From contig CAWEHQ010000014.1 of the NCBI GenBank assembly GCA_963808955.1, positions 52,091-116,090 on the forward strand: 64,000 bases of DNA. The letters run 5' to 3'. This DNA comes from an uncultured Thermoleophilaceae bacterium. Its GTDB lineage: Bacteria; Actinomycetota; Thermoleophilia; Solirubrobacterales; Thermoleophilaceae. Shown here piece by piece: positions 7,165 to 35,711 of this stretch. Position 1 is the stretch's first letter, and each line of letters opens with the position of its first letter. The notes beneath the pieces are model-generated. The model was not told the origin of the DNA and did no database searches. It saw nothing but the letters and a program-made list of their open reading frames with translations. A program made the position numbers and the translations under genes.

Positions 7165-8361
7165 CTACGCCTGGGAGTACGGGACCTCGCCGCGCTGGAG
7201 GCCGGAATCGAGCTCGTCGAGCGTGCCGGCGCGGATGGCGAGCCGGACCCGCTCGAGCAGCTTGGCCATGAATGTGAGGTTGTGGAGCGTCACGAGCCGC
7301 GCGCCGGTGAGCTCCTTCGACCGCGTCAGGTGGTGGAGGTAGGCGCGGGTGTGGTGCGTGCAAGCGTCGCAGGGGCAACCGACGGCGATCGGCTCGCGGC
7401 TCTCGGCCGATTCCGGGTTCTTGAGGTCCAGCCTGAACCGCGCCTCCGGCGCCGGCACCAGTGCCGTACCGTGGCGGGCCAGACGAGTCGGGGTGGCGCA
7501 GTCGAACGTGTCGATCCCGGCACGAACGCCCATCACGATGTCGTCGGGATCGCCGATCCCGAGGAGGTGCCGCGGACGGTCCTCGGGCAGCGGACCGACC
7601 GACCAGTCCACGACCTCCTTCATCTGCTCCTTGTCCTGCCCCAGCGTGCCCCCGATCGCGATCCCGTCCACGCGCCGTGCCGCCACCGCCTCGGCGGACT
7701 TACGACGGAGATCGTGATGTGTGCCCCCCTGGACGATGCCGAACAGCAGGCGGCGTTCCCGGTCGTGCCGCTCGCGCCAGTCCATGCAGCGGTCGAGCCA
7801 GCGATGTGTGCGCTCCATCGACCGCTCGGTGTAGTCGCGCGACGCGTGGAAGGGTGTGCACTCGTCGAAGGCGAGCGCCACGTCGGTTCCGAGTGCGGCC
7901 TGGACCTCCATCGAGGTCTCGGGGCCCATGAAGCGCTCGGCGCCGTCGACGTACGAGCGGAAGCGGACCCCCTCCTCGTCGATGGCGAGGATCCGGCCCT
8001 CGCTCTGGCGCCTGCCGCCGCGCCGCTTGACCTCCTCCGCCACCGTGCCATGACCCATCGAGAAGACCTGGAAGCCGCCGGAGTCGGTCACGATCGGGCG
8101 CCGCCAGCCCATGAACTCGTGCAGACCGCCGAGCCGCTCGATCCGCGCGTGACCCGGGCGGAGGAACAGGTGGAAGGTGTTGCCGAGCACCATCTCGAAG
8201 CCGATCGCCTCGACCTCGGATGCATGCAGAGACTTGACCGTGGCGGTGGACGCGAGCGGCACGAACGCCGGCGTCCCGACGTCGCCGTGCGCCGTACGCA
8301 GGACGCCCGCGCGGGCCCGGCCCACGCGGGCGTCGATCTCGAAGGCCGGACCCGCCGTCAC
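7165..8361 (-). CDS. tgt: tRNA-guanine transglycosylase (queuine tRNA-ribosyltransferase)
   Basis: 398 aa. Has TPAFVPLASTATVKSL, VTDSGGFQVFS, AFDECTP, GIAIGGTLG and the zinc motif CPCDACTHHTRAYLHHL. Confidence 0.92.
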   Translation of the reverse strand: MTAGPAFEIDARVGRARAGVLRTAHGDVGTPAFVPLASTATVKSLHASEVEAIGFEMVLGNTFHLFLRPGHARIERLGGLHEFMGWRRPIVTDSGGFQVFSMGHGTVAEEVKRRGGRRQSEGRILAIDEEGVRFRSYVDGAERFMGPETSMEVQAALGTDVALAFDECTPFHASRDYTERSMERTHRWLDRCMDWRERHDRERRLLFGIVQGGTHHDLRRKSAEAVAARRVDGIAIGGTLGQDKEQMKEVVDWSVGPLPEDRPRHLLGIGDPDDIVMGVRAGIDTFDCATPTRLARHGTALVPAPEARFRLDLKNPESAESREPIAVGCPCDACTHHTRAYLHHLTRSKELTGARLVTLHNLTFMAKLLERVRLAIRAGTLDELDSGLQRGEVPYSQA

Positions 8362-8387
8362 CGGCAGGCCAGCCTAGTCACGATGAG

Positions 8388-8858
8388 TTACCTCTCGGTG
8401 TTCTCGGTCGCGGTGCCCTCCACCGCAGCCGACCCGCCGGACTGGATTTGGACCCGGCGCGGCTGGCGCTCCTCGGGCTTGGGAATCCGCACCTCGAGCA
8501 CGCCCTTGTCGAAGCTCGCCGCGATCGCGTCCGCGTCCACGCCGTCCGGGAGCGAGAGCGAGCGGCTGAAGCTTCCGAACGAACGCTCCATCCGATACCA
8601 GCCGCGCTCCTTCTGCTCGTGCTCCGCCTCGCGCCTGCCCGAGATGCGCAGCGTGTTGTCGTGCACCTCGATCTGCACGTCCTCCTCGGCCAGGCCGGGA
8701 AGATCGGCCCTGAGCAGGAAGTGGTCCTCGCCCTCGACGAGGTCCATGGCCGGGCTCCAGCGCTGGAGCGCGTTGCCGTTCTCGCCCCCGCCGAGAAGCG
8801 TGTTGAACAGCCGGCTGACCTCCGTCGAGAAGGGGTCCGGCCTCATCAGCAGCGTCAT
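8388..8858 (-). CDS. Hsp20/alpha-crystallin family small heat-shock protein
   Basis: 156 aa. Has WSPAMDLVEGEDHFLLRADLPGLAEEDVQIEV and FSRSLSLPDGVDADAIAASFDKGVLEVRIPK. Confidence 0.9.
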   Translation of the reverse strand: MTLLMRPDPFSTEVSRLFNTLLGGGENGNALQRWSPAMDLVEGEDHFLLRADLPGLAEEDVQIEVHDNTLRISGRREAEHEQKERGWYRMERSFGSFSRSLSLPDGVDADAIAASFDKGVLEVRIPKPEERQPRRVQIQSGGSAAVEGTATENTER

Positions 8859-8935
8859 TTATGTCACCTCCCTATCGTCTCGCGTCGGCCGGCCGTTCGT
8901 GCCGGCTCGAACGTGGCTACTTCCGTCGCCAAGAG

Positions 8936-8970
8936 ATAAAACCTGAGTGGTGAAATATGTCAAGTTTTAT
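8936..8970. promoter_or_regulatory. AT-rich imperfect inverted repeat about 80-110 nt upstream of hsp20 (candidate heat-shock operator or promoter region)
   Basis: ATAAAAC-N21-GTTTTAT lies within the only clearly AT-rich stretch of this neighbourhood. On the hsp20 strand it reads CTTGACA-N9-ACTCAGG, which is reminiscent of the HAIR consensus CTTGAGT-N7-ACTCAAG but not identical to it. Confidence 0.3.
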
Positions 8971-9026
8971 GGGCGATAAGCACCAGACGCAGCGTCGGTA
9001 GGCAGGGCGGCAGCGCGCGGCGATTC

Positions 9027-9631
9027 GTGGCTCCCGACGTCGTGGACCTGGGCTGCGGGAAGGGACAGGCGCTGCTGCTCGCAGCCGGGCTGCCCTTCGG
9101 GAGGGCAATCGGCGTCGAGCTGGTCGAGGACCTCGGCGCACGGCCGCAGCGAACGTCCGGAACGCTTCGCCGCGGCTGAAGGCGCGTAGCGTCGAGACCG
9201 TCACGGCCGACGTCCTCGAATGGCCGGTCCCCGAAGATCTCTCCGTCGTGTTCATGTACTCCCCCGTCACCGGGGATGTCTTCCACGCGACGATGGAGCG
9301 GGTGTTCGCTTCCTTCGATCGCCGGCCGCGGCCGCTGCGCCTCATCTATGCCTTTCCCTGGGAGCACAACTGGTTGATTCGAAGCGGCCGGGTGGTCGTC
9401 GAGGATGTCCGGCCGGCGTGGTGGCCCGCGGAGCCCTGGTGGTGGCGCACGGCCTGGGTGATCGTGACCTACCGCATCATCGAGCGGGGCGCGCCCACGC
9501 CTCCAGCGCCGTCGCTCCCCCGTCGCCTGTTCCGGCCGCAGCGCGCGATCGACCGCTGGCGGGGACCGAACGACCAGCACTTCGCGCTGAAGGTGCCCGA
9601 AGCCATGCTCAAGCAACGGGGACCCGCGTGA
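9027..9631 (+). pseudogene. class I SAM-dependent methyltransferase remnant (N-terminally truncated, one frameshift near 9120)
   Basis: Motif I VVDLGCGKGQALLLAAGLPFGRAIGVELVEDL in one frame continues as ARTAAANVRNAS...VTADVLEWPVPEDLSVVFMYSPV in the 9248..9631 frame. There is an in-frame stop about 30 codons upstream of motif I, so no normal N-terminus is present. Confidence 0.6.
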
Positions 9632-9693
9632 GACCGTCGACCGTCCAGGGGGCGTGGGTCGAGCCGACGAGAGCGGGCAAGTTCGTCGCATTC

Positions 9694-11196
9694 ATGAGCA
9701 ACCTGCGGAGCATGAAGGAGCGGCTCGGGGCCGCAGGGATAGCCGAGCTGATCGCCGCACGAGCCCTCCCGCAGACGCTGGCGTACACGCGGGTGGTAGT
9801 CGCGTTGCACCGCGCACAACGCCCGGTCGGGGTGCCGCGCTCGGATGTCGTGGTGCACCGCGTGGGGCGAGTCGACGCCCGGGTGCGCGACCTCGTCGCT
9901 CGTCTCGCCGCCGCCGAGGAGCCCGGACTACCGGTCCCATCGTCGTCCGGGCTGGAGGAGCGCTTCGCCCGCGGCGAGGAAGCCTGGGTCGGCGAGGTGG
10001 ACGGACGGCCGGTGCACGGGTGGTTCGTCGGGCGCGACGAGTTCCGCTTCGCGGGAGTGGGCTTCCCCCTGAACGACGACGAACGGGAGTCGAACCTCGC
10101 CTTCACCCTGCCCGGTCATCGGGGACGCGGGATCGGCCGGGCGGTGGAGCACGCGGTCTCGGAATCCCTGATCGGGGATGGTGTGACCACGATGTTCGGC
10201 GCGATCCTTGCCTTCAGCCGGCGCCGGCTGGCCGACGAGCTGGGGCGTCCCGGTACCCACCGCATGGCGACCGCGCACACCGTCACCGTGGCCGGCCGGC
10301 GATGGACTCGCATCGATCCGTCCAGCCCGCCCCACGAGCGGTTGCTCGAGCAGCGCGGGCTCCGCACCGGTCGCTGGACCCGCGAGCCGCAGCGCCCCTC
10401 TCTAGCAAGCCGCTGGGATGGCGCCGCCAGCAGCGTCGCCGGTCGACCGTACCTCGACCCCCAGATGGGGCTCGTGAAGCGCCGTGCCCACCTCGACCTG
10501 GTCGATCGATGGCTGCCGGACCTTGGTGAACGGACGGTGCTCAAGACCGATCTGTGGGAAGAGGGGGTCGCCGGCGACGAGCTGCTGTTCACGCTGGCCA
10601 GGCGGGCGCGGTCCACATGCGGGATCGACGTCTCGCCCACGATCGTCGAGGCGGCTTCGCAGGCCGCCGCGCGCGCCGGGGTCGATCCCCGGCTCGTCAG
10701 CGCCGACCTCGGCGAGCTGCCGATCGAGGACGGGGCGGTCGACGCCGTGCTGTCGACGTCCACCATCGATCACCTCGAGGAGTCGGAGCGGCTGGCAGCG
10801 CTCAGGGAGGTTCGGCGTGTCCTTGCGCCGGGCGGGGTCGTCGTGATCACCTGCGACAACGCGAGCAACGTCGGTGAGCCTCTGCTGCGGCTGGCCGCCC
10901 GGCTCGGATTGGTCCCGTTCCCGCTGGGGCCCGGCGCCACCCTGGACGGCCTGCGTCAGCTGCTTCGCCGCGCCGGCTTCGACGACGGGGAGCACGCCTA
11001 CCTGGTGCACGGGCCGCGCGTCGTGACAACCCTGCTGTCTCGAGCGATGCGGCGTCTGGGAGGGCCCCACGCGGACGACGGCGTGGCGCGGCTCCTCCGG
11101 CTGCTCGATGCCGCCGGCAGCAGGGCACCTCGCAGGATGGCTGCATTCGTGGCGGTCCGGGCGACACTGCCGGAGCGGAACGGTGCGGGCGCATAG
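9694..11196 (+). CDS. fusion protein: N-terminal GNAT-like acyltransferase module (paralog 1) plus C-terminal class I SAM-dependent methyltransferase
   Basis: N-terminus MSNLRSMKERLGAAGIAELIAARALPQTLAY and GNAT motif A PGHRGRGIGRAVEHAV. C-terminal half has TVLKTDLWEEGV, DAVLSTSTIDHLEE and RVLAPGGVVVITCDN (MT11-like). No stop separates the two halves. Confidence 0.7.
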   Translation: MSNLRSMKERLGAAGIAELIAARALPQTLAYTRVVVALHRAQRPVGVPRSDVVVHRVGRVDARVRDLVARLAAAEEPGLPVPSSSGLEERFARGEEAWVGEVDGRPVHGWFVGRDEFRFAGVGFPLNDDERESNLAFTLPGHRGRGIGRAVEHAVSESLIGDGVTTMFGAILAFSRRRLADELGRPGTHRMATAHTVTVAGRRWTRIDPSSPPHERLLEQRGLRTGRWTREPQRPSLASRWDGAASSVAGRPYLDPQMGLVKRRAHLDLVDRWLPDLGERTVLKTDLWEEGVAGDELLFTLARRARSTCGIDVSPTIVEAASQAAARAGVDPRLVSADLGELPIEDGAVDAVLSTSTIDHLEESERLAALREVRRVLAPGGVVVITCDNASNVGEPLLRLAARLGLVPFPLGPGATLDGLRQLLRRAGFDDGEHAYLVHGPRVVTTLLSRAMRRLGGPHADDGVARLLRLLDAAGSRAPRRMAAFVAVRATLPERNGAGA

Positions 11197-29971: not shown

Positions 29972-31327
29972 CTACTCCACCAGCCGCACCTCGAAGTCGA
30001 GCGCCCCCGCCAGCCCCTCCGCTCCGATCAGGCTGAGGATCTTCGCGACGTAGGCCTGCGTCTCCGGGTAGGGCGGGATGCAGCCGCAGGCCGCGACGGC
30101 GCCCTCGCCGGCGTTGTAGGCGGCGAGCGCCAGCGGCACCGAGGCAAAGCGGCGCAGCAGGTCGTGCATCAGGTGGGCCTGCGCGTCGATCGCCTGCTCG
30201 GGGTCGAAGGGGTTGCCGAGACCGTAGGCGGCGGCGGTGCCCGGCATGAACTGGGCGATGCCCTGCGCGCCGGCCGGCGACACCGCCCTCGGGTTGAAGC
30301 CGGACTCGGCATAGAGCTGGGCCGAGATCAGCGCAGCCGACACTTTCCAGCGCCGGGCGGCCGCGACGATCGCCGGCCGGTACTGCGCCGGGACGAACGA
30401 CGGGACCGCGCTCGACCCGCCGCTGTGCACGCCGTCGCGGCCGAAGCCGACCGACGAGCTGCCCGGGTTGTGCGTATAGCCGTAATGCCACGGTTCCCAG
30501 CTGTACCTCTGGATGAAGCCGAAGCGCTCGGCGTTGCGCGCGAGCCAGCCGTACGCCGAGGCCGGGCCCAGGTCGAGCTCCGTGCCGTACCGGTGGAGGC
30601 TCGTGCCGGGGCGCGCCACCATCTTCGGGTCGGGGTTCTGCGCGAACAACCGCGCCTGCTCGGAGTCGGACCGGAACGCGCTTGTGATCGTCAGCGAGAT
30701 TCCGTCCTTGCGGGCCGCCGCCTCCATGCGGTCGAACGCCTGGGCGACGTCCGGGCGCATCGGCTCGCCCTGGCGGTATGCGAACGGGCCGTCGTACTCG
30801 CCGCCCGCACCGGCGAGGTCCGTCGTCACCAGAGGGACGAGCTCGGCCTTTGCCCGGCCCCTGACGCGCACGCTTCTCCGGGCCGCCCCGTCCGAGCCGC
30901 GGCCGCCGAGCCGAAGCTCCTGCTCTCCCCGCACCACCGTGCGAACGAGGAGCGGTCCGAGGCCGTCGCCGCCCGAGAAGTGAACGTCGCCGGCGGACAG
31001 ACCGAACCCGTTCCTCCGCGCCGCCCGGATCGCCGCGGCGCGGGCCCTGTCCACGTACTCGTCGCGGCTCAGGTGGCGGGGATTCGGTACGCCGGGGCGG
31101 AGGTAGGCCGGCTCGAGCAGCCTCGGGTAGGCATCGCGCATGGCATGCGCCGCCGAGACCGCGGCGAGGTCGGCCGCGCGCTGGTGGCGCCCCTTCCCGC
31201 CAAGCCCCTGTCCGAACGCCGCGAGGACCAGCGCCCCGGCGATCAACACGGCGGCCAGCCCGACCAGCAGCACCACGGCCTGCCCCGACTCGCCTCGCGC
31301 CCTGAACGCGGCCCGGCGCGTCACCAC
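29972..31327 (-). CDS. three-domain protein: TadG/TadE-G-like N-terminal membrane anchor plus VanY/M15B D-Ala-D-Ala carboxypeptidase plus SLT lytic transglycosylase
   Basis: The GTG start at 31327/31324 overlaps the upstream stop. N-terminus: GESGQAVVLLVGLAAVLIAGALVL...HQRAADLAAVSAAHA (Tad pilus-assembly N-terminal pattern). Middle: TSAFRSDSEQARLF, SLHRYGTELDL, WEPWHYGY (M15B zinc and catalytic motifs). C-terminus: ISAQLYAESGFNPRAVSPAGAQGIAQFMPGTA...LAAYNAGEGAV (SLT). Confidence 0.8.
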   Translation of the reverse strand: MVTRRAAFRARGESGQAVVLLVGLAAVLIAGALVLAAFGQGLGGKGRHQRAADLAAVSAAHAMRDAYPRLLEPAYLRPGVPNPRHLSRDEYVDRARAAAIRAARRNGFGLSAGDVHFSGGDGLGPLLVRTVVRGEQELRLGGRGSDGAARRSVRVRGRAKAELVPLVTTDLAGAGGEYDGPFAYRQGEPMRPDVAQAFDRMEAAARKDGISLTITSAFRSDSEQARLFAQNPDPKMVARPGTSLHRYGTELDLGPASAYGWLARNAERFGFIQRYSWEPWHYGYTHNPGSSSVGFGRDGVHSGGSSAVPSFVPAQYRPAIVAAARRWKVSAALISAQLYAESGFNPRAVSPAGAQGIAQFMPGTAAAYGLGNPFDPEQAIDAQAHLMHDLLRRFASVPLALAAYNAGEGAVAACGCIPPYPETQAYVAKILSLIGAEGLAGALDFEVRLVE

Positions 31328-32049
31328 TCGCTCCTCACCACCGCGCACGGCTCGGCGACCTGACCCAGACCGTCGCCGAGCACTCCCGAGCCGCGACCGG
31401 CGAGCGCTAAACGAGCCCCCAGAGCGGAGCGGCCGAGCACCGCCGCCGCTCGCCCCTCCCACCGCTCGAGATCGCCGCTCGCATCGGCGCGGTTGAGAGC
31501 CACGAGCGGCGACGGTCCGATCCGTCCGAGCGAAGCCGCCACGGCATCCGCAAGCGCCGGCTCGGCGGCCGGCGTCGCAACGACGACCACGTGGTCCGCC
31601 AGCGACACCGCCACGCCGGCCGGCTCGCCGTGGCCCACGTCAATTACGAGCGGCGCCAGATGCCGGACCCGGTCGGCGAGCGGTCCCGGCTCGCCGTCCT
31701 CCACCAGGCAGAGCCGCCCCGCGGCCCGAACTCGCTCCCCCGCTCCCGGCCCCACCGCCCTGGCGAGCGTCCGGGCCTGCCAGACGCCCGGCGCAAGCGG
31801 TCCCCGGCCCCAAGCGCCCGCCACCAACGCGGCGCCAGCAGGATCCCGATGAGCGAGCCCGCTCGCCAGCCCGCGAGCGACCGTGGTCGTGCCACACCGG
31901 CTCGCGAGCCCCACGACCGCCACCACCGGGCGCAGTGTGATCGCGGTTGGCCGTGCGACCTCCTCCACCGGCTCGAGCAGGAAGGCACCGACCCTCGCGA
32001 GCGCGGCGGCCGCCAGCCGGCGACCGGGCGAGGTTGCGGTCACGCTCAT
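31321..32049 (-). CDS. CpaE/ParA-like protein with a degenerate Walker A motif (actinobacterial Tad-neighbourhood type)
   Basis: The start is at MSVTATSPG (32049, an ATGA overlap with the upstream stop). VVAVVGLASRCGTTTVARGLASGLA sits where MinD/CpaE proteins carry GGxGKT, and no Lys is present. VVVVATPAAEPAL and LVALNRAD resemble the CpaE layout. Confidence 0.55.
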   Translation of the reverse strand: MSVTATSPGRRLAAAALARVGAFLLEPVEEVARPTAITLRPVVAVVGLASRCGTTTVARGLASGLAHRDPAGAALVAGAWGRGPLAPGVWQARTLARAVGPGAGERVRAAGRLCLVEDGEPGPLADRVRHLAPLVIDVGHGEPAGVAVSLADHVVVVATPAAEPALADAVAASLGRIGPSPLVALNRADASGDLERWEGRAAAVLGRSALGARLALAGRGSGVLGDGLGQVAEPCAVVRSEW

Positions 32050-32411
32050 CGGCGTGGCGCCCTGACCGCGGCGGTCGAGCTGACCTCGAGCCGCTCCGCG
32101 AGCGCCTCCAGCGGTGAGGGCGGCCGAAGCGAGACCTCGACCAGGCCGCCGTCGACCGCCACCTCCATCCCGGCGCGCGACCAGCCCGGGAGCGCCTCGC
32201 GCGCGGCGTCCTCGGCCTCGCCGCCGCCGGCGAGCGAGAGCGCACCGGCCTCGGCGGCGTTCCCGGCCAGGACCGCTGCGTACCCGACTGCGAGCGCCTG
32301 GAAGAGGAACAGGCCGAGGACGACGAGCACGGGCAGCGCGCCAAGCAACTCGACGCTCGCCTGCCCGCATCCTCCCGCCGGCGCCGAGACTCCGCACGGC
32401 GGCCTGGTCAC
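32046..32411 (-). CDS. TadE-like pseudopilin family protein
   Basis: The GTG start at 32411 overlaps the upstream stop. GGCGQASVELLGALPVLVVLGLFLFQALAVGYAAVLAGNAAEAGA is the TadE N-terminal signature. Confidence 0.7.
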   Translation of the reverse strand: MTRPPCGVSAPAGGCGQASVELLGALPVLVVLGLFLFQALAVGYAAVLAGNAAEAGALSLAGGGEAEDAAREALPGWSRAGMEVAVDGGLVEVSLRPPSPLEALAERLEVSSTAAVRAPRR

Positions 32412-32746
32412 GACTCCGCCTCGAGATGCGCGCTGGCCGAGACCGGGATCGGCGTCTGCCACCGGTGGAGGACGAACGGAACGAGCACACTGACCTCGAC
32501 ATGGCCGGTGTCCTCGTTCACCTCCATCCCACGCTCCAGCCCGTCGGGCAGGGCGCTTCGCGCCGCCTGCTCGGCGTCGTCCCCCACGGCCTCGGCCCGG
32601 GCCGCGACGCGCGCGGCGTTGGCGCACGTCCAGAGCGTGTGGCCCGCCAGGGCAAGCTGCCACACCACGAGCCCGACCAGCAGGACGAACGGGAGGACCG
32701 CCACCATCTCGACCGACGCCTGCGCTCGTTCCGACCCTGCCCGCAT
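32408..32746 (-). CDS. TadE-like pseudopilin family protein
   Basis: MRAGSERAQASVEMVAVLPFVLLVGLVVWQLALAGHTLWTCANAARVAARA has the ERxQASVE motif followed by a hydrophobic helix. Confidence 0.75.
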   Translation of the reverse strand: MRAGSERAQASVEMVAVLPFVLLVGLVVWQLALAGHTLWTCANAARVAARAEAVGDDAEQAARSALPDGLERGMEVNEDTGHVEVSVLVPFVLHRWQTPIPVSASAHLEAES

Positions 32747-32793: not shown

Positions 32794-33307
32794 TCAACTA
32801 CGGGCTAACGGAACGTGAAAACCCCGGGCGTCTAGGGGTCGAGCGGCAGCCGCAGGAGCAGCAGCCGAGCGCCGCTCCGCGGTCTCGGCGGAGAATCCCA
32901 ACCCCCCGTAGAGCGCCAGCGCGGCGTGGTTGTCGGACGCCGCATCGAGGTCGACGCGGCGACAGCCGCGTCCCCGCGCGCGGTCGATGGCTGCCTCCAC
33001 GAGCGCGCGACCTACGCCGCCGGCCACGCGCCCGATCCGTGACGAAAAGGTCCTCGAGCCAGCAGTCCTCGGCGGAGTGCCACAGCCCGTAGCGATAGCG
33101 GAGCTGGCACACCCCCTCGGGCCGGCCGTCGGGGTCGCCCGCTCCGAGCAGGTACTCGGTCGCCGGATCGGCGATCAGGCGGTCGACGCTTCCGCGAAGG
33201 TCGGCGTCCGCCGGCGCGGTCCGGCCCTGCCAGTCGCGAAACTCTGCCATCAGGTCGGCTACCGCAGGCGCGTCGGCCGGGGCGGCCCGCCAGACCCGAG
33301 CCGTCAC
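32794..33307 (-). pseudogene. GNAT family N-acetyltransferase, one frameshift near 33030
   Basis: VTARVWRAAPADAPAVADLMAEF...CQLRYRYGLWHSAEDCWLEDLFV, then (shift) AGGVGRALVEAAIDRARGRGCRRVDLDAASDNHAALALYGGLGFS. Confidence 0.8.
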
Positions 33308-33323
33308 ACGGCGCCGGACGCAG

Positions 33324-33680
33324 TCATCCGTACCTGCGTGACTGCATGTAGACCCAGTAGACGCCGTACGAGCAGAGCCCCAGCAGGGCCAGCCAGGCAA
33401 GGACGCCGGGGGGGCCGGCGTCGAAGAGGCGCTCGCTCGCCGTGAACGTAAGGAAAGCCAGGCCGATCGACCCGAAGAGAATCAGCCGGGTGCGTGGCTC
33501 GAGGCTGTCGATCGTGAAGCGATGGTCGCGGTAGAGCCGGTAGCCGAGGAACGCGATCGCCACCAGGAACGCGATCAGGAGCGCCGCCAGGAGCCCGTCG
33601 AGCGCCGGCCCGCCCCCGGGTATCACCGTGATCGCCAGGGCGACCAGTAGCACGATCCCGAACTTGAGCAGCGTGGTCAC
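33324..33680 (-). CDS. hypothetical integral membrane protein (4 predicted TM helices)
   Basis: 118 aa. MTTLLKFGIVLLVALAITVIPGG...LLAALLIAFLVAIAFLGYRLY...ILFGSIGLAFLTF...VLAWLALLGLCSYGVYWVY. Confidence 0.6.
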   Translation of the reverse strand: MTTLLKFGIVLLVALAITVIPGGGPALDGLLAALLIAFLVAIAFLGYRLYRDHRFTIDSLEPRTRLILFGSIGLAFLTFTASERLFDAGPPGVLAWLALLGLCSYGVYWVYMQSRRYG

Positions 33681-33722: not shown

Positions 33723-34541
33723 CTACGAGATGACCCCGGCCGCCGCGAGAACGATCACCACTGTCCCCAGGACCACGCGGTAGACCACGAAGATCTTCGT
33801 GGTGTGGGTGACGAGGAAGCGCAGCAGGAAGGCGATCGCCGCGTAGCCGGCGACGAAGGCCATGAGCGTGGCGACCACCAGCGCGACGGCCCCTGTGTCG
33901 TCGGGCTCCTCGAGCAGGCTCACGAGCTGGAACAGGCCCGACAGCACCACGGCCGGGATAGAGAGCAGGAACGAGAAGCGCGCGGCGGTCTCCCGCTCGA
34001 GCCCGAGGAACAGCCCGGCAGTGATCGTCGCACCGGACCGCGACACGCCGGGGATCAGCGCGAGCGCCTGGGCGAACCCGACCACGATCGCGTCGCGACG
34101 GTTCACGCGTTCGAGCCCGCGCGTGCGCGAGCCCACCTGCTCCGCCGCCAGCAGGATCAGGCCGAGCACGATCAGCGCGCCGCCGATCAGGTAGAGGTCG
34201 CGCGCGCCGGTCTCGATCTGATCCTCGAATGCCAGGCCGAAGATCGAGATCGGGATCGTGGCGACGATCAGGTACCAACCCATGCGCGCGTCGAGCTCCG
34301 ACCGGAGCCGCGGCTCGCGAAGGCTGCGAACCCACGTGCGCGCGATCCGGATCAGGTCGGTCCGGAAGTAGATGACCACCGCGAGCATCGTGCCGAGCTG
34401 GGTGATCGCAGTGAAGGCGGCGCCCGGGTCCGGCCAACCCGCGAAGGCGGGCACCACGCGCAGGTGCGCGGTGCTCGAGATCGGCAGGAACTCGGTGAGC
34501 CCCTGCACGACCCCGAGAACGATCGCCTCGAGGATCGACAC
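33723..34541 (-). CDS. uppP: undecaprenyl-diphosphate phosphatase
   Basis: MSILEAIVLGVVQGLTEFLPISSTAHL and GVSRSGATITAGL are the BacA/UppP signatures. Confidence 0.92.
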   Translation of the reverse strand: MSILEAIVLGVVQGLTEFLPISSTAHLRVVPAFAGWPDPGAAFTAITQLGTMLAVVIYFRTDLIRIARTWVRSLREPRLRSELDARMGWYLIVATIPISIFGLAFEDQIETGARDLYLIGGALIVLGLILLAAEQVGSRTRGLERVNRRDAIVVGFAQALALIPGVSRSGATITAGLFLGLERETAARFSFLLSIPAVVLSGLFQLVSLLEEPDDTGAVALVVATLMAFVAGYAAIAFLLRFLVTHTTKIFVVYRVVLGTVVIVLAAAGVIS

Positions 34542-34669: not shown

Positions 34670-35215
34670 ATGTCGAGAACCGTCCGCACAGCTTTGTTGG
34701 TGGTGGCCGTCGCCGCCGGAGTCGGAGTCCTGGCGCTGCCCGCCGGGGCGGCCCCTACGGCGTTGGAGGCCCGCATGAACGGCGACAAGGAGGTGCCCGG
34801 GCCGGGCGATCCCAACGGTCGCGGAGTCGCGGAGGTCACCGTGAATCCGGCGCGCAGGCGGGTCTGCTTCGACATCGAGTTCAGGCGGATCCAGGATCCG
34901 GTCGCGGGCCACATACACAGGGGCTCCAGTGACGTGGCCGGCCCCATCAAGGTCCTGCTGTTCGAGGATTCCCAGGGCGTCGACTCGCCCGTCGACGGCT
35001 GCGTTGGAGACCTGAGGCGAAGACTGCTCCGCAAGATCAAGAACAACCCGCGGGGCTGGTACGTGAACCTGCACAACGGGGAGTACCCCGACGGCGCGAT
35101 CAGGGGCCAGCTGCGCGTCGATAACGGCCGTGGCGGCGGAGGCGGCGGACGGGGGCGGCGGAAACGGAGGCGGCGGAGGCCCCTACTGAGAGCCCGCACC
35201 GGACACGCCCTCTAG
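34670..35215 (+). CDS. CHRD domain-containing secreted protein with a Gly/Arg-rich tail
   Basis: Signal peptide, then LEARMNGDKEVPGPGDPNGRGVAEVTV...VCFDIEF...VAGHIHRGSSDVAGPI...WYVNLHNGEYPDGAIRGQL. Confidence 0.85.
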   Translation: MSRTVRTALLVVAVAAGVGVLALPAGAAPTALEARMNGDKEVPGPGDPNGRGVAEVTVNPARRRVCFDIEFRRIQDPVAGHIHRGSSDVAGPIKVLLFEDSQGVDSPVDGCVGDLRRRLLRKIKNNPRGWYVNLHNGEYPDGAIRGQLRVDNGRGGGGGGRGRRKRRRRRPLLRARTGHAL

Positions 35216-35216
35216 C

Positions 35217-35711
35217 TCAATTGCCGTGCTCCTCGAAGCGACGCCGCGAGGCGTCGATCTCCTCGATGGCGTCCTCGCGCGAGTACCAGCCGTCAACCGT
35301 GACCTTCTTCTGCTCCAGGTCCTTGTAGACCGAGAAGAAGTGCTCGATCTCGTCCTTTAGCTGGTTCGGGATGTCCTCGAGCCGCTCCAGTGAGTTCCAC
35401 GCCGGGTCCTGGAGCGGGACGCAGAGCACCTTGTCGTCCACGCCCTTGTCGTCCTCCATCTTGAAGAGCGCGATCGGCTTGACGTCGATCACGCAGCCGG
35501 GGAACGTGGGCTCCGACACGCAGACCATCGCGTCGAGCGGGTCGCCGTCCTCCGCCAGGGTGCGGGGAACGAAGCCGTAGTCGGTCGGATAGACCATCGA
35601 GGAGAAGAGGAAGCGGTCCAGCTTCAGCACCTGCTCCTCGGTGTCGAACTCGTACTTGTTGCGGCTCCCCTTGGGAATCTCGACGTAGCAGGACAGTTGC
35701 TCGTCAGCCAT
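35217..35711 (-). CDS. ppa: inorganic diphosphatase (family I)
   Basis: YVEIPKGSRNKYEFD, YPTDYGFVPRTLAEDGDPLDAMV, and FKMEDDKGVDDKVLCV. Confidence 0.95.
   Translation of the reverse strand: MADEQLSCYVEIPKGSRNKYEFDTEEQVLKLDRFLFSSMVYPTDYGFVPRTLAEDGDPLDAMVCVSEPTFPGCVIDVKPIALFKMEDDKGVDDKVLCVPLQDPAWNSLERLEDIPNQLKDEIEHFFSVYKDLEQKKVTVDGWYSREDAIEEIDASRRRFEEHGN

Follow-up and report, generated by a model that had tools for sequence, protein, structure and literature searches.

In Tad pili, pilins of the TadE, TadF and TadG types form tip complexes that prime the filament, in which a large subunit of the TadG/KilN type exposes a modular end domain, and the clusters encoding such tips can be located apart from the core tad genes (PMC12075869). 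Modular type IV pilins are widespread, and a survey of them found hundreds of architectures, with a peptidase signature among them (PMC8179133). A structural paper of 2025 on the Tad pilus notes that neither a peptidoglycan hydrolase nor a lytic transglycosylase is reported with such pili (PMC12307814). Here we analyse a four-gene operon in a stretch of 64,000 nucleotides (the window; contig C14:52091-116090) from the genome bin of an uncultured bacterium of the Thermoleophilaceae. This placement agrees with the names on close protein relatives of the product of the last gene, a fusion protein of 451 amino acids (aa). The bin measures 1.86 Mb in 18 contigs, with 71% G+C, and is 74% complete. 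Because tip complexes of TadE/F/G type, modular end domains and clusters apart from the core have all been published, we lean, on the sequence evidence, towards reading the operon as encoding the TadE/F/G-type minor pilins of a Tad (type IVc) system with split genes, in which the TadG equivalent would open peptidoglycan. The analysis covers how the genes are arranged, which domains they encode and whether catalytic motifs are intact, together with predicted folds, conservation, synteny and the way in which the parts are split and complement each other; membership in a pilus machine, topology, processing and the wall-opening role we infer.

The operon consists of four head-to-tail open reading frames (ORFs) on the minus strand, at 32408-32746, 32046-32411, 31321-32049 and 29972-31327. 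Start and stop codons overlap as GTGA at 32408-32411, as ATGA at 32046-32049 and as GTGGTGA at 31321-31327, and the four translationally coupled genes that an earlier sequence-only reading of this DNA had proposed are thus confirmed. That reading called the first two genes TadE-like, and this was borne out. The first product (P0004, 112 aa; 32408-32746) is a TadE-like minor prepilin with 25.5 bits for PF07811, above the cut-off of 22.9, and with 39.4 bits for NF041390 (TadE_Rv3655c), just under the cut-off of 40. Its N-terminus is of class III type, RA/QASVEM with Ala at -1, followed by a hydrophobic helix (here and below the slash marks the processing site). The second TadE-like minor prepilin (P0003, 121 aa; 32046-32411) matches the same two models weakly, with 15.7 bits for PF07811, below the cut-off, and 23.4 bits for NF041390. 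It is about 40% identical to the first and carries a canonical class III site, G/QASVEL, with Glu at +5. The hallmarks of class III signal peptides, namely a Gly at -1, a Glu at +5 and a hydrophobic helix, are present, and relatives show GQAxVE in both genes. Among 21 scored loci with long enough flanks, most have two GQAxVE motifs ahead of the fusion gene, at about 1.0 and 1.35 kb.

The fourth gene (29972-31327) encodes the fusion, in which two flexible linkers, modelled by AlphaFold with low confidence at residues about 167-189 and 286-312, part three modules. The middle module is a zinc peptidase domain of the VanY/LdcB type, family M15B (residues 190-285; 30473-30760, minus strand), which matches PF02557 with 61.9 bits against a cut-off of 25 (E 6.7e-17). 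Its zinc ligands H-D-H and catalytic Glu lie in the motifs S243-x-H245...D252 and E278-x-W-H281, which are invariant in 40 homologues, and in Foldseek it is closest to LdcB (4jid/4mph, 31% identity), with VanYB also found. The last module is an SLT (GH23) lytic transglycosylase domain (residues 320-412; 30092-30370, minus strand) with 75.4 bits for PF01464 against a cut-off of 21.3 (E 3.4e-21). The motifs E341-S342, GIAQ (356-359) and AYNAG (402-407) are invariant in the same 40 homologues, and Foldseek returns Slt70 and MltF. Both assignments, to the M15B peptidases and to the SLT/GH23 lytic transglycosylases, are thus backed by a family model and by motifs, and the motifs of both enzymes are kept even in the most distant orthologues, at 45-50% identity. 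The two hydrolase domains named by the sequence-only reading are confirmed, and every catalytic motif in them is intact. In the AlphaFold model of the whole fusion the enzyme domains come out poorly, with a mean predicted local distance difference test score (pLDDT) of 67, and these domains rest on the hidden Markov model matches and the motifs.

Two further observations concern this part of the gene. A C-x-C motif, CGCIP (residues 412-416; 30080-30092), stands at the end of the SLT domain; it is invariant in the order of our bacterium, is missing from the orthologues of one sampled family (f6), and might form a disulfide or bind a metal. Elsewhere in the same bin (contig C18:27852-28124) there is a copy, 273 bp long, of window positions 30504-30776, the core of the VanY domain. 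It is 94.9% identical, has a stop codon inside, and is found close to a serine-recombinase-like gene and 2 kb before the contig ends. Strain variation, mis-binning or the duplication of a fragment may account for it. The fusion gene shares no DNA with the VanY-derived repeat array at 22-25 kb of the window.

Is the N-terminus of the fusion a true Tad domain? It had been taken for a TadG-type anchor. The domain (residues about 13-166; 30830-31291, minus strand) scores 16.4 bits for PF13400 (Tad) in our protein, below the cut-off of 22.3, and 27.2 bits for TIGR03816, the Rv3654c family, against a cut-off of 51. PF13400 is matched at E <= 0.01 by 37 of 40 homologues (best 1.2e-6), and an orthologue from family f3 reaches the cut-off with 22.9 bits; labels f1-f10 and f12 denote families of the class Thermoleophilia, sampled with 200 genomes. 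Judged from these profiles, the N-terminus appears to be Tad-type at the level of the family. Its layout is an Arg-rich cytoplasmic start, an invariant E-x-G/Q, a hydrophobic helix, a QRAADLAA motif and a small beta-sheet, with E13, G15, Q16, L20, Q49 and D53 invariant in the 40 homologues. AlphaFold models residues 20-165 with pLDDT 82-96, with helices at 2-70 and 88-105 and strands at 115-118, 127-139 and 150-166, a predicted pilin shape of one long helix and a beta-sheet. A generic anchor with no match to Tad models is thus not what was found, and the earlier call is supported for the family and for the predicted fold, with a sub-threshold score in the protein itself. When residues 1-185 alone were searched against 1.84 billion cluster representatives, 465 relatives were returned, many of them 600-667 aa long with the N-domain beginning near residue 200-250.

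What precedes the N-domain in those longer proteins? The answer is related to the third gene of the operon (P0002; 31321-32049, minus strand), which encodes a cytoplasmic protein of 242 aa. It has no match in Pfam or NCBIfam, and a search of its family profile against the sequences of the PDB gave nothing meaningful (best E 0.39), so it was placed by fold comparison only. Its AlphaFold model, built from 38 homologues, has a pLDDT of 89. Foldseek finds MinD (1hyq, E 1.9e-7), the ParA structure 3ea0, BcsQ and FlhG, with E values from 2e-7 to 1e-5 and TM scores of about 0.55, which gives a fold of the MinD/ParA (SIMIBI) type. The P-loop reads GLASRCGTTT, with the family form GLAxRCGTTT over the 38 homologues; the Walker A lysine is absent, and most likely the protein is ATPase-dead, as far as its sequence tells. 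About 392 relatives exist in databases, every one unnamed. Thus, of the features of the ParA/MinD family including CpaE/TadZ, the SIMIBI fold is present, while the Walker A lysine and a family-model match are missing. The sequence-only reading had the gene as CpaE/ParA-like, which agrees with the fold and fails on the family sequence features. The protein is not to be filed as a member of the ParA/MinD family; it is an ATPase-dead relative at best, and probably a degenerate partner of the TadZ/CpaE type. When its family was aligned by hhalign with a true CpaE of the sister order, the P-loop alone was aligned (E 0.025).

In several genomes of families f2 and f3 the MinD-like region and the fusion form a single open frame of 670-710 aa. 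Examples are locus L039 at 8007-10133 (plus strand) and locus L040 at 9081-11090 (minus strand), and others are L026, L029, L031, L032, L034 and L043. In the L040 protein the Tad domain is internal (residues 231-277), with VanY at 407-502 and SLT at 540-631. The single frame supports a physical partnership across the membrane, with the MinD-like part inside and the enzymes outside. If a prepilin peptidase still cuts these proteins, the leader would be about 230 aa.

Where would the fusion sit in a pilus? The invariant Gly at -1 and the lack of Glu at +5 favour a position at the tip, and a position at the base is favoured by the cytoplasmic domain to which the protein is joined in relatives. 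The fusion may be cleaved at G15/Q16 and built in as the tip-most subunit, so that the pilus would carry a two-enzyme cutting head through the thick wall; we regard this as doubtful. If it were true, the relatives fused to the MinD-like part would have an unprecedentedly long cleavable leader of 25 kDa, and with this protein a wall hydrolase would for the first time be a type IV filament subunit in its own right, and for the first time be tied to Tad pili. The same features could be read in another way. A fusion cleaved at G15/Q16 might cap the pilus as TadG or KilN does and attack the peptidoglycan of neighbours, in competition, predation or scavenging, and not the own wall. The invariant Gly at -1 and the missing Glu at +5 would fit such a display, tip-most pseudopilins such as GspK also being without Glu5, and the flexible linkers would let the enzymes reach outward. 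Contact killing is moreover known from Myxococcus, where Tad tip complexes with exchangeable end modules do it and the tip clusters lie off the core (PMC12075869). Against this, the folded cytoplasmic domain of roughly 230 aa before the anchor in many relatives would again need an unprecedentedly long leader. Each genome has a single copy of the fusion gene in a fixed syntenic position. No immunity-like gene accompanies it and nothing points to diversification, which fits a housekeeping part better than a weapon. We know of no predatory lifestyle in this class. The neighbour-directed weapon is thus quite improbable.

Could the module be what is left of a decaying tad locus, or a generic hydrolase with a signal anchor that came to lie near TadE-like genes by chance? 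The scores of the Tad domain and of the second TadE below their cut-offs, and a frameshifted acetyltransferase gene next door, might suggest so. The conservation data already contradict it. A large protein database contains at least 7,995 relatives of the fusion protein, and the best 120 of these are all full-length, 62-94% identical, and carry VanY and SLT; for about a quarter of them Tad is called too. All three domains are already named in some JGI records, and the three-domain architecture is, on these matches, very common in public metagenome proteins. In the 200-genome sample the full-length fusion was found in families f1-f6, which belong to two orders, and matches to the SLT domain only in f7-f10. 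Orthologues across the six sampled families are 43-94% identical and retain the catalytic and Tad motifs. The gene order is kept as well, namely a 118-aa membrane protein, TadE, TadE, the MinD-like protein and the fusion, often after uppP and a pyrophosphatase gene, both of which are syntenic with the module in relatives. With order and translational coupling conserved, and with 37 of the 40 homologues matching the Tad model, the module is evidently not a remnant, and we consider that explanation extremely improbable.

There is a further question of concern, where the rest of the machine is encoded. None of tadA, tadB, tadC, flp or a prepilin peptidase gene is among the ORFs listed at 27-36 kb around the module, the part of the window that was scanned for them, and the genome-wide matches are all on other contigs, in agreement with the earlier remark that no core component is adjacent. 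On contig C3, at 62-69 kb, a response regulator, a histidine kinase, CpaB (SAF and RcpC domains), TadA (T2SSE, E 2.4e-64), TadB and TadC are encoded directly upstream of mraZ-rsmH-ftsI of the dcw cluster. An A24 prepilin peptidase gene stands beside aroE on contig C12. A candidate for the Flp-type pilin is a 76-aa protein (contig C2:73907-74137, plus strand) directly upstream of a murI-like gene. Its leader, ...RSGLG/QGTVEYVALILLVAL..., gives a G/QGTVEY site before a hydrophobic helix; the candidate comes from a motif scan only and has no Pfam match. The Pfam models Flp_Fap and Tad gave nothing in a six-frame search of the genome at 74% completeness, and no other tadE or Tad-domain gene was found beyond the module, a soft absence at this completeness. 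The module had been called orphan. This holds locally, while the genome does encode CpaB-TadA-TadB-TadC and a prepilin peptidase on other contigs, and the split is conserved in the lineage. In five closed genomes, one each of f1, f2, f3, f5 and f6, the core lies beside mraZ, has neither tadE nor tadG, and is 94 kb to 1.2 Mb away from the module. A full tad locus elsewhere with its own tadE and tadG, combined with a module absent from relatives, is therefore not the situation here.

A third T2SSE match, on contig C4, was considered as a second Tad ATPase and rejected, since it is a PilT-like gene interrupted across three frames. The bin also has genes for a type IVa pilus (PilB/PilT/PilC/PilD-like, C3:140-152 kb); these and the PilT-like ATPase gene (C4:85.5-87.7 kb) are broken across several frames, and either they are pseudogenes or the assembly contains local indel errors.

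The sister order offers a comparison. In a genome of family f8, flp, tadE, cpaB, cpaE (AAA_31/CbiA/ParA), tadA, tadB, tadC and tadG are contiguous, and the TadG consists of Tad (49.7 bits) and vWA. TadE matches lie 3-5 kb from tadA in f8, f9 and f12. Going by domain order, VanY and SLT of the fusion appear to occupy the place of vWA in the TadG of the sister order. The contiguous locus may be the older state, from which the minor-pilin part would have moved and in which vWA would have been replaced by VanY and SLT. The MinD-like gene gives a further hint. In one f6 genome (L057, 7164-7895, plus strand) a 243-aa MinD-like gene, without Pfam match and with the lysine-less P-loop GACGGCGTS, is at the cpaE position between cpaB and tadA, and the module of the same genome has no room for a MinD-like gene. 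In the order of our bacterium the core is without a cpaE-like gene and the module has the MinD-like gene. The MinD-like profile aligns with the f6 protein (hhalign E 1e-3 over 121 columns) and with the fused N-terminus of f3 (E 4e-4), both weakly and in register. Of the evidence gathered here, this complementary distribution speaks most strongly for a joint action of module and core. A class-wide census of TadE was of little use, NF041390 being too insensitive for it (49 of 201 genomes, only one above the cut-off).

The position of the core, immediately upstream of mraZ-rsmH-ftsI in our genome and in the five closed relatives from five families (L053-L057), calls for another explanation to be weighed. 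The module might be a membrane complex for wall remodelling or division that is independent of any pilus, in which the pilin-like segments are anchors or interaction modules and the MinD-like protein positions the hydrolases, for example at the septum or the poles, for cell separation or wall turnover. Besides the neighbourhood of the core, the module usually follows uppP (bacA), a gene of wall-precursor recycling, the 242-aa protein has the fold of MinD, and the layout of relatives, a cytoplasmic domain, a transmembrane segment and hydrolases, is typical of a positioned bitopic enzyme. The CpaE-like protein of the mycobacterial locus is reportedly described as a septum-site-determining protein. 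However, the small proteins keep their class III sites G/QAxVE across the lineage, which would be pointless unless a prepilin peptidase and a platform for a type IV filament were at work. In addition, the core lacks exactly the gene types that the module supplies, and in the sister order these gene types stand together in a single classical tad locus. We consider a pilus-independent complex unlikely.

For the split Tad system, which we prefer, the following scenario can be given. The two small prepilins would be cut by the A24 peptidase of the genome and would then prime the assembly of the filament on the platform of CpaB, TadA, TadB and TadC, whose genes are on the other contig. The 451-aa protein would be the TadG equivalent, its pilin-like N-domain joining or docking to that complex, and its two flexibly linked enzymes would act outside the membrane. 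There the M15B peptidase would trim or cut peptide stems while the lytic transglycosylase would cut glycan strands, and both may jointly open peptidoglycan exactly where the filament passes. In the cytoplasm the MinD-like protein probably connects this complex with the platform, a task that TadZ/CpaE has in other systems. The sequence-only reading had proposed that a set of minor pseudopilins recruits a wall-remodelling enzyme for a machine encoded elsewhere. Its wall-opening idea fits all the computed evidence, since the N-terminus proved more than a generic anchor and the module is conserved, with a tadABC locus that has no tadE or tadG of its own; the notion of recruitment has to be changed, as the hydrolase would itself be the TadG-equivalent subunit.

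Several points weigh against this scenario. The Tad match of the protein itself is under the Pfam cut-off, and BLASTP of the fusion against classical TadG shows no similarity. Two features are unusual for a filament subunit, namely Leu instead of Glu at +5 of the fusion, and a large cytoplasmic domain fused before the anchor in relatives. Most M15B enzymes are carboxypeptidases, whose action is to trim stems and not to open cross-links. The MinD-like protein is linked to CpaE by its fold, by its position and by profile matches that are weak (E 0.025, 4e-4 and 1e-3). Genetic linkage of the module to tadA/tadB/tadC, flp and the prepilin peptidase gene fails, as these lie on C3, on C12 and, for the flp candidate, on C2. 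Absences are soft in a bin that is 74% complete, and the co-occurrence of module and tadA is confounded by shared ancestry.

How does the module compare with described systems? Wall hydrolases dedicated to an envelope-spanning machine include the VirB1-type enzymes, FlgJ and, in conjugation systems of Gram-positive bacteria, PrgK, TcpG and TraG of pIP501, which are multi-domain hydrolases anchored in the membrane; for type IVb pili there are the lytic transglycosylases BfpH and PilT of R64. The fusion resembles them in having an N-terminal anchor and two wall-cutting domains, in being encoded with its machine as we read it, and in a presumed local opening of the wall. It differs by the pilin-like Tad anchor, by M15B rather than CHAP, LytM or NlpC/P60, and by the Tad context. 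The actinobacterial Tad-like locus Rv3654c-Rv3660c is the source of the best NCBIfam matches, TIGR03816 for the fusion (27.2 bits) and NF041390 for the two TadE-like proteins (39.4 and 23.4 bits), but all three scores are below the curated cut-offs. Proteins of the Rv3654c type are small and without enzyme domains. The tip clusters of KilL, KilM and KilN share with the module two small TadE-type prepilins, a large Tad-domain protein with a separate C-terminal module, and a place off the core (PMC12075869). Here, in contrast, a pair of hydrolases stands instead of an adhesin or a domain of unknown function, Leu stands instead of Glu at +5, and the cluster contains a MinD-like pseudo-ATPase that is fused to the large protein in many relatives. 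PilB (pilin and vWA) and PilC (pilin and lectin) of Streptococcus sanguinis are T4a-type proteins with the N-methylation motif (IPR012902) and ligand-binding modules (PMC8179133), while our fusion combines a Tad-type pilin module with two wall-degrading enzymes. The main text of that survey discusses no such architecture, and the words 'hydrolase', 'lytic' and 'TadG' never occur in it.

Literature searches for a fusion of Tad, VanY and SLT found no paper describing it. The parts are known, that is TadE/F/G sets, modular pilins and machine-dedicated hydrolases, and their combination is in no paper found. The earlier reader did not recognise the fusion as described, which agrees with these searches of the literature; the architecture is common in public proteins, and some sources annotate its domains one by one. 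Why does it matter? How type IV filaments cross the thick peptidoglycan of single-membrane bacteria is an open question. The module is a concrete, conserved candidate for this crossing, with a protein at the TadG position in which the adhesin module would be swapped for two intact wall-cutting enzymes. At least two orders have it, in a class that is widespread in soil and has some cultivable members. Moreover, the putative parts of this Tad system are stably scattered near cell-wall genes, and an apparently dead MinD-like protein is repeatedly fused to a pilin-like protein across the membrane.

The neighbourhood of the operon in the window is as follows. On one flank is an SRPBCC/AHSA1 gene (E 9.8e-25) and on the other a GNAT acetyltransferase gene (32794-33320, minus strand), as named before; the latter is indeed split by a frameshift, and its C-terminal piece matches positions 75-116 of Acetyltransf_1 (E 8.6e-10). 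Further upstream are the gene of the 118-aa small membrane protein (33324-33680, minus strand), uppP/bacA (33723-34541, minus strand), a CHRD-domain protein gene (34670-35215, plus strand, E 5e-22) and the inorganic pyrophosphatase gene (35217-35711, minus strand). The 118-aa protein, without a match to any Pfam family, is encoded beside the TadE genes at loci L021, L022, L037-L041 and L043 with 29-61% identity (tblastn), and this putative membrane protein may belong to the module. Between its gene and the first TadE-like gene our genome has the GNAT gene, where relatives have only about 90 nt. The GNAT gene is therefore an insertion in our genome, and its frameshift could be an assembly error.

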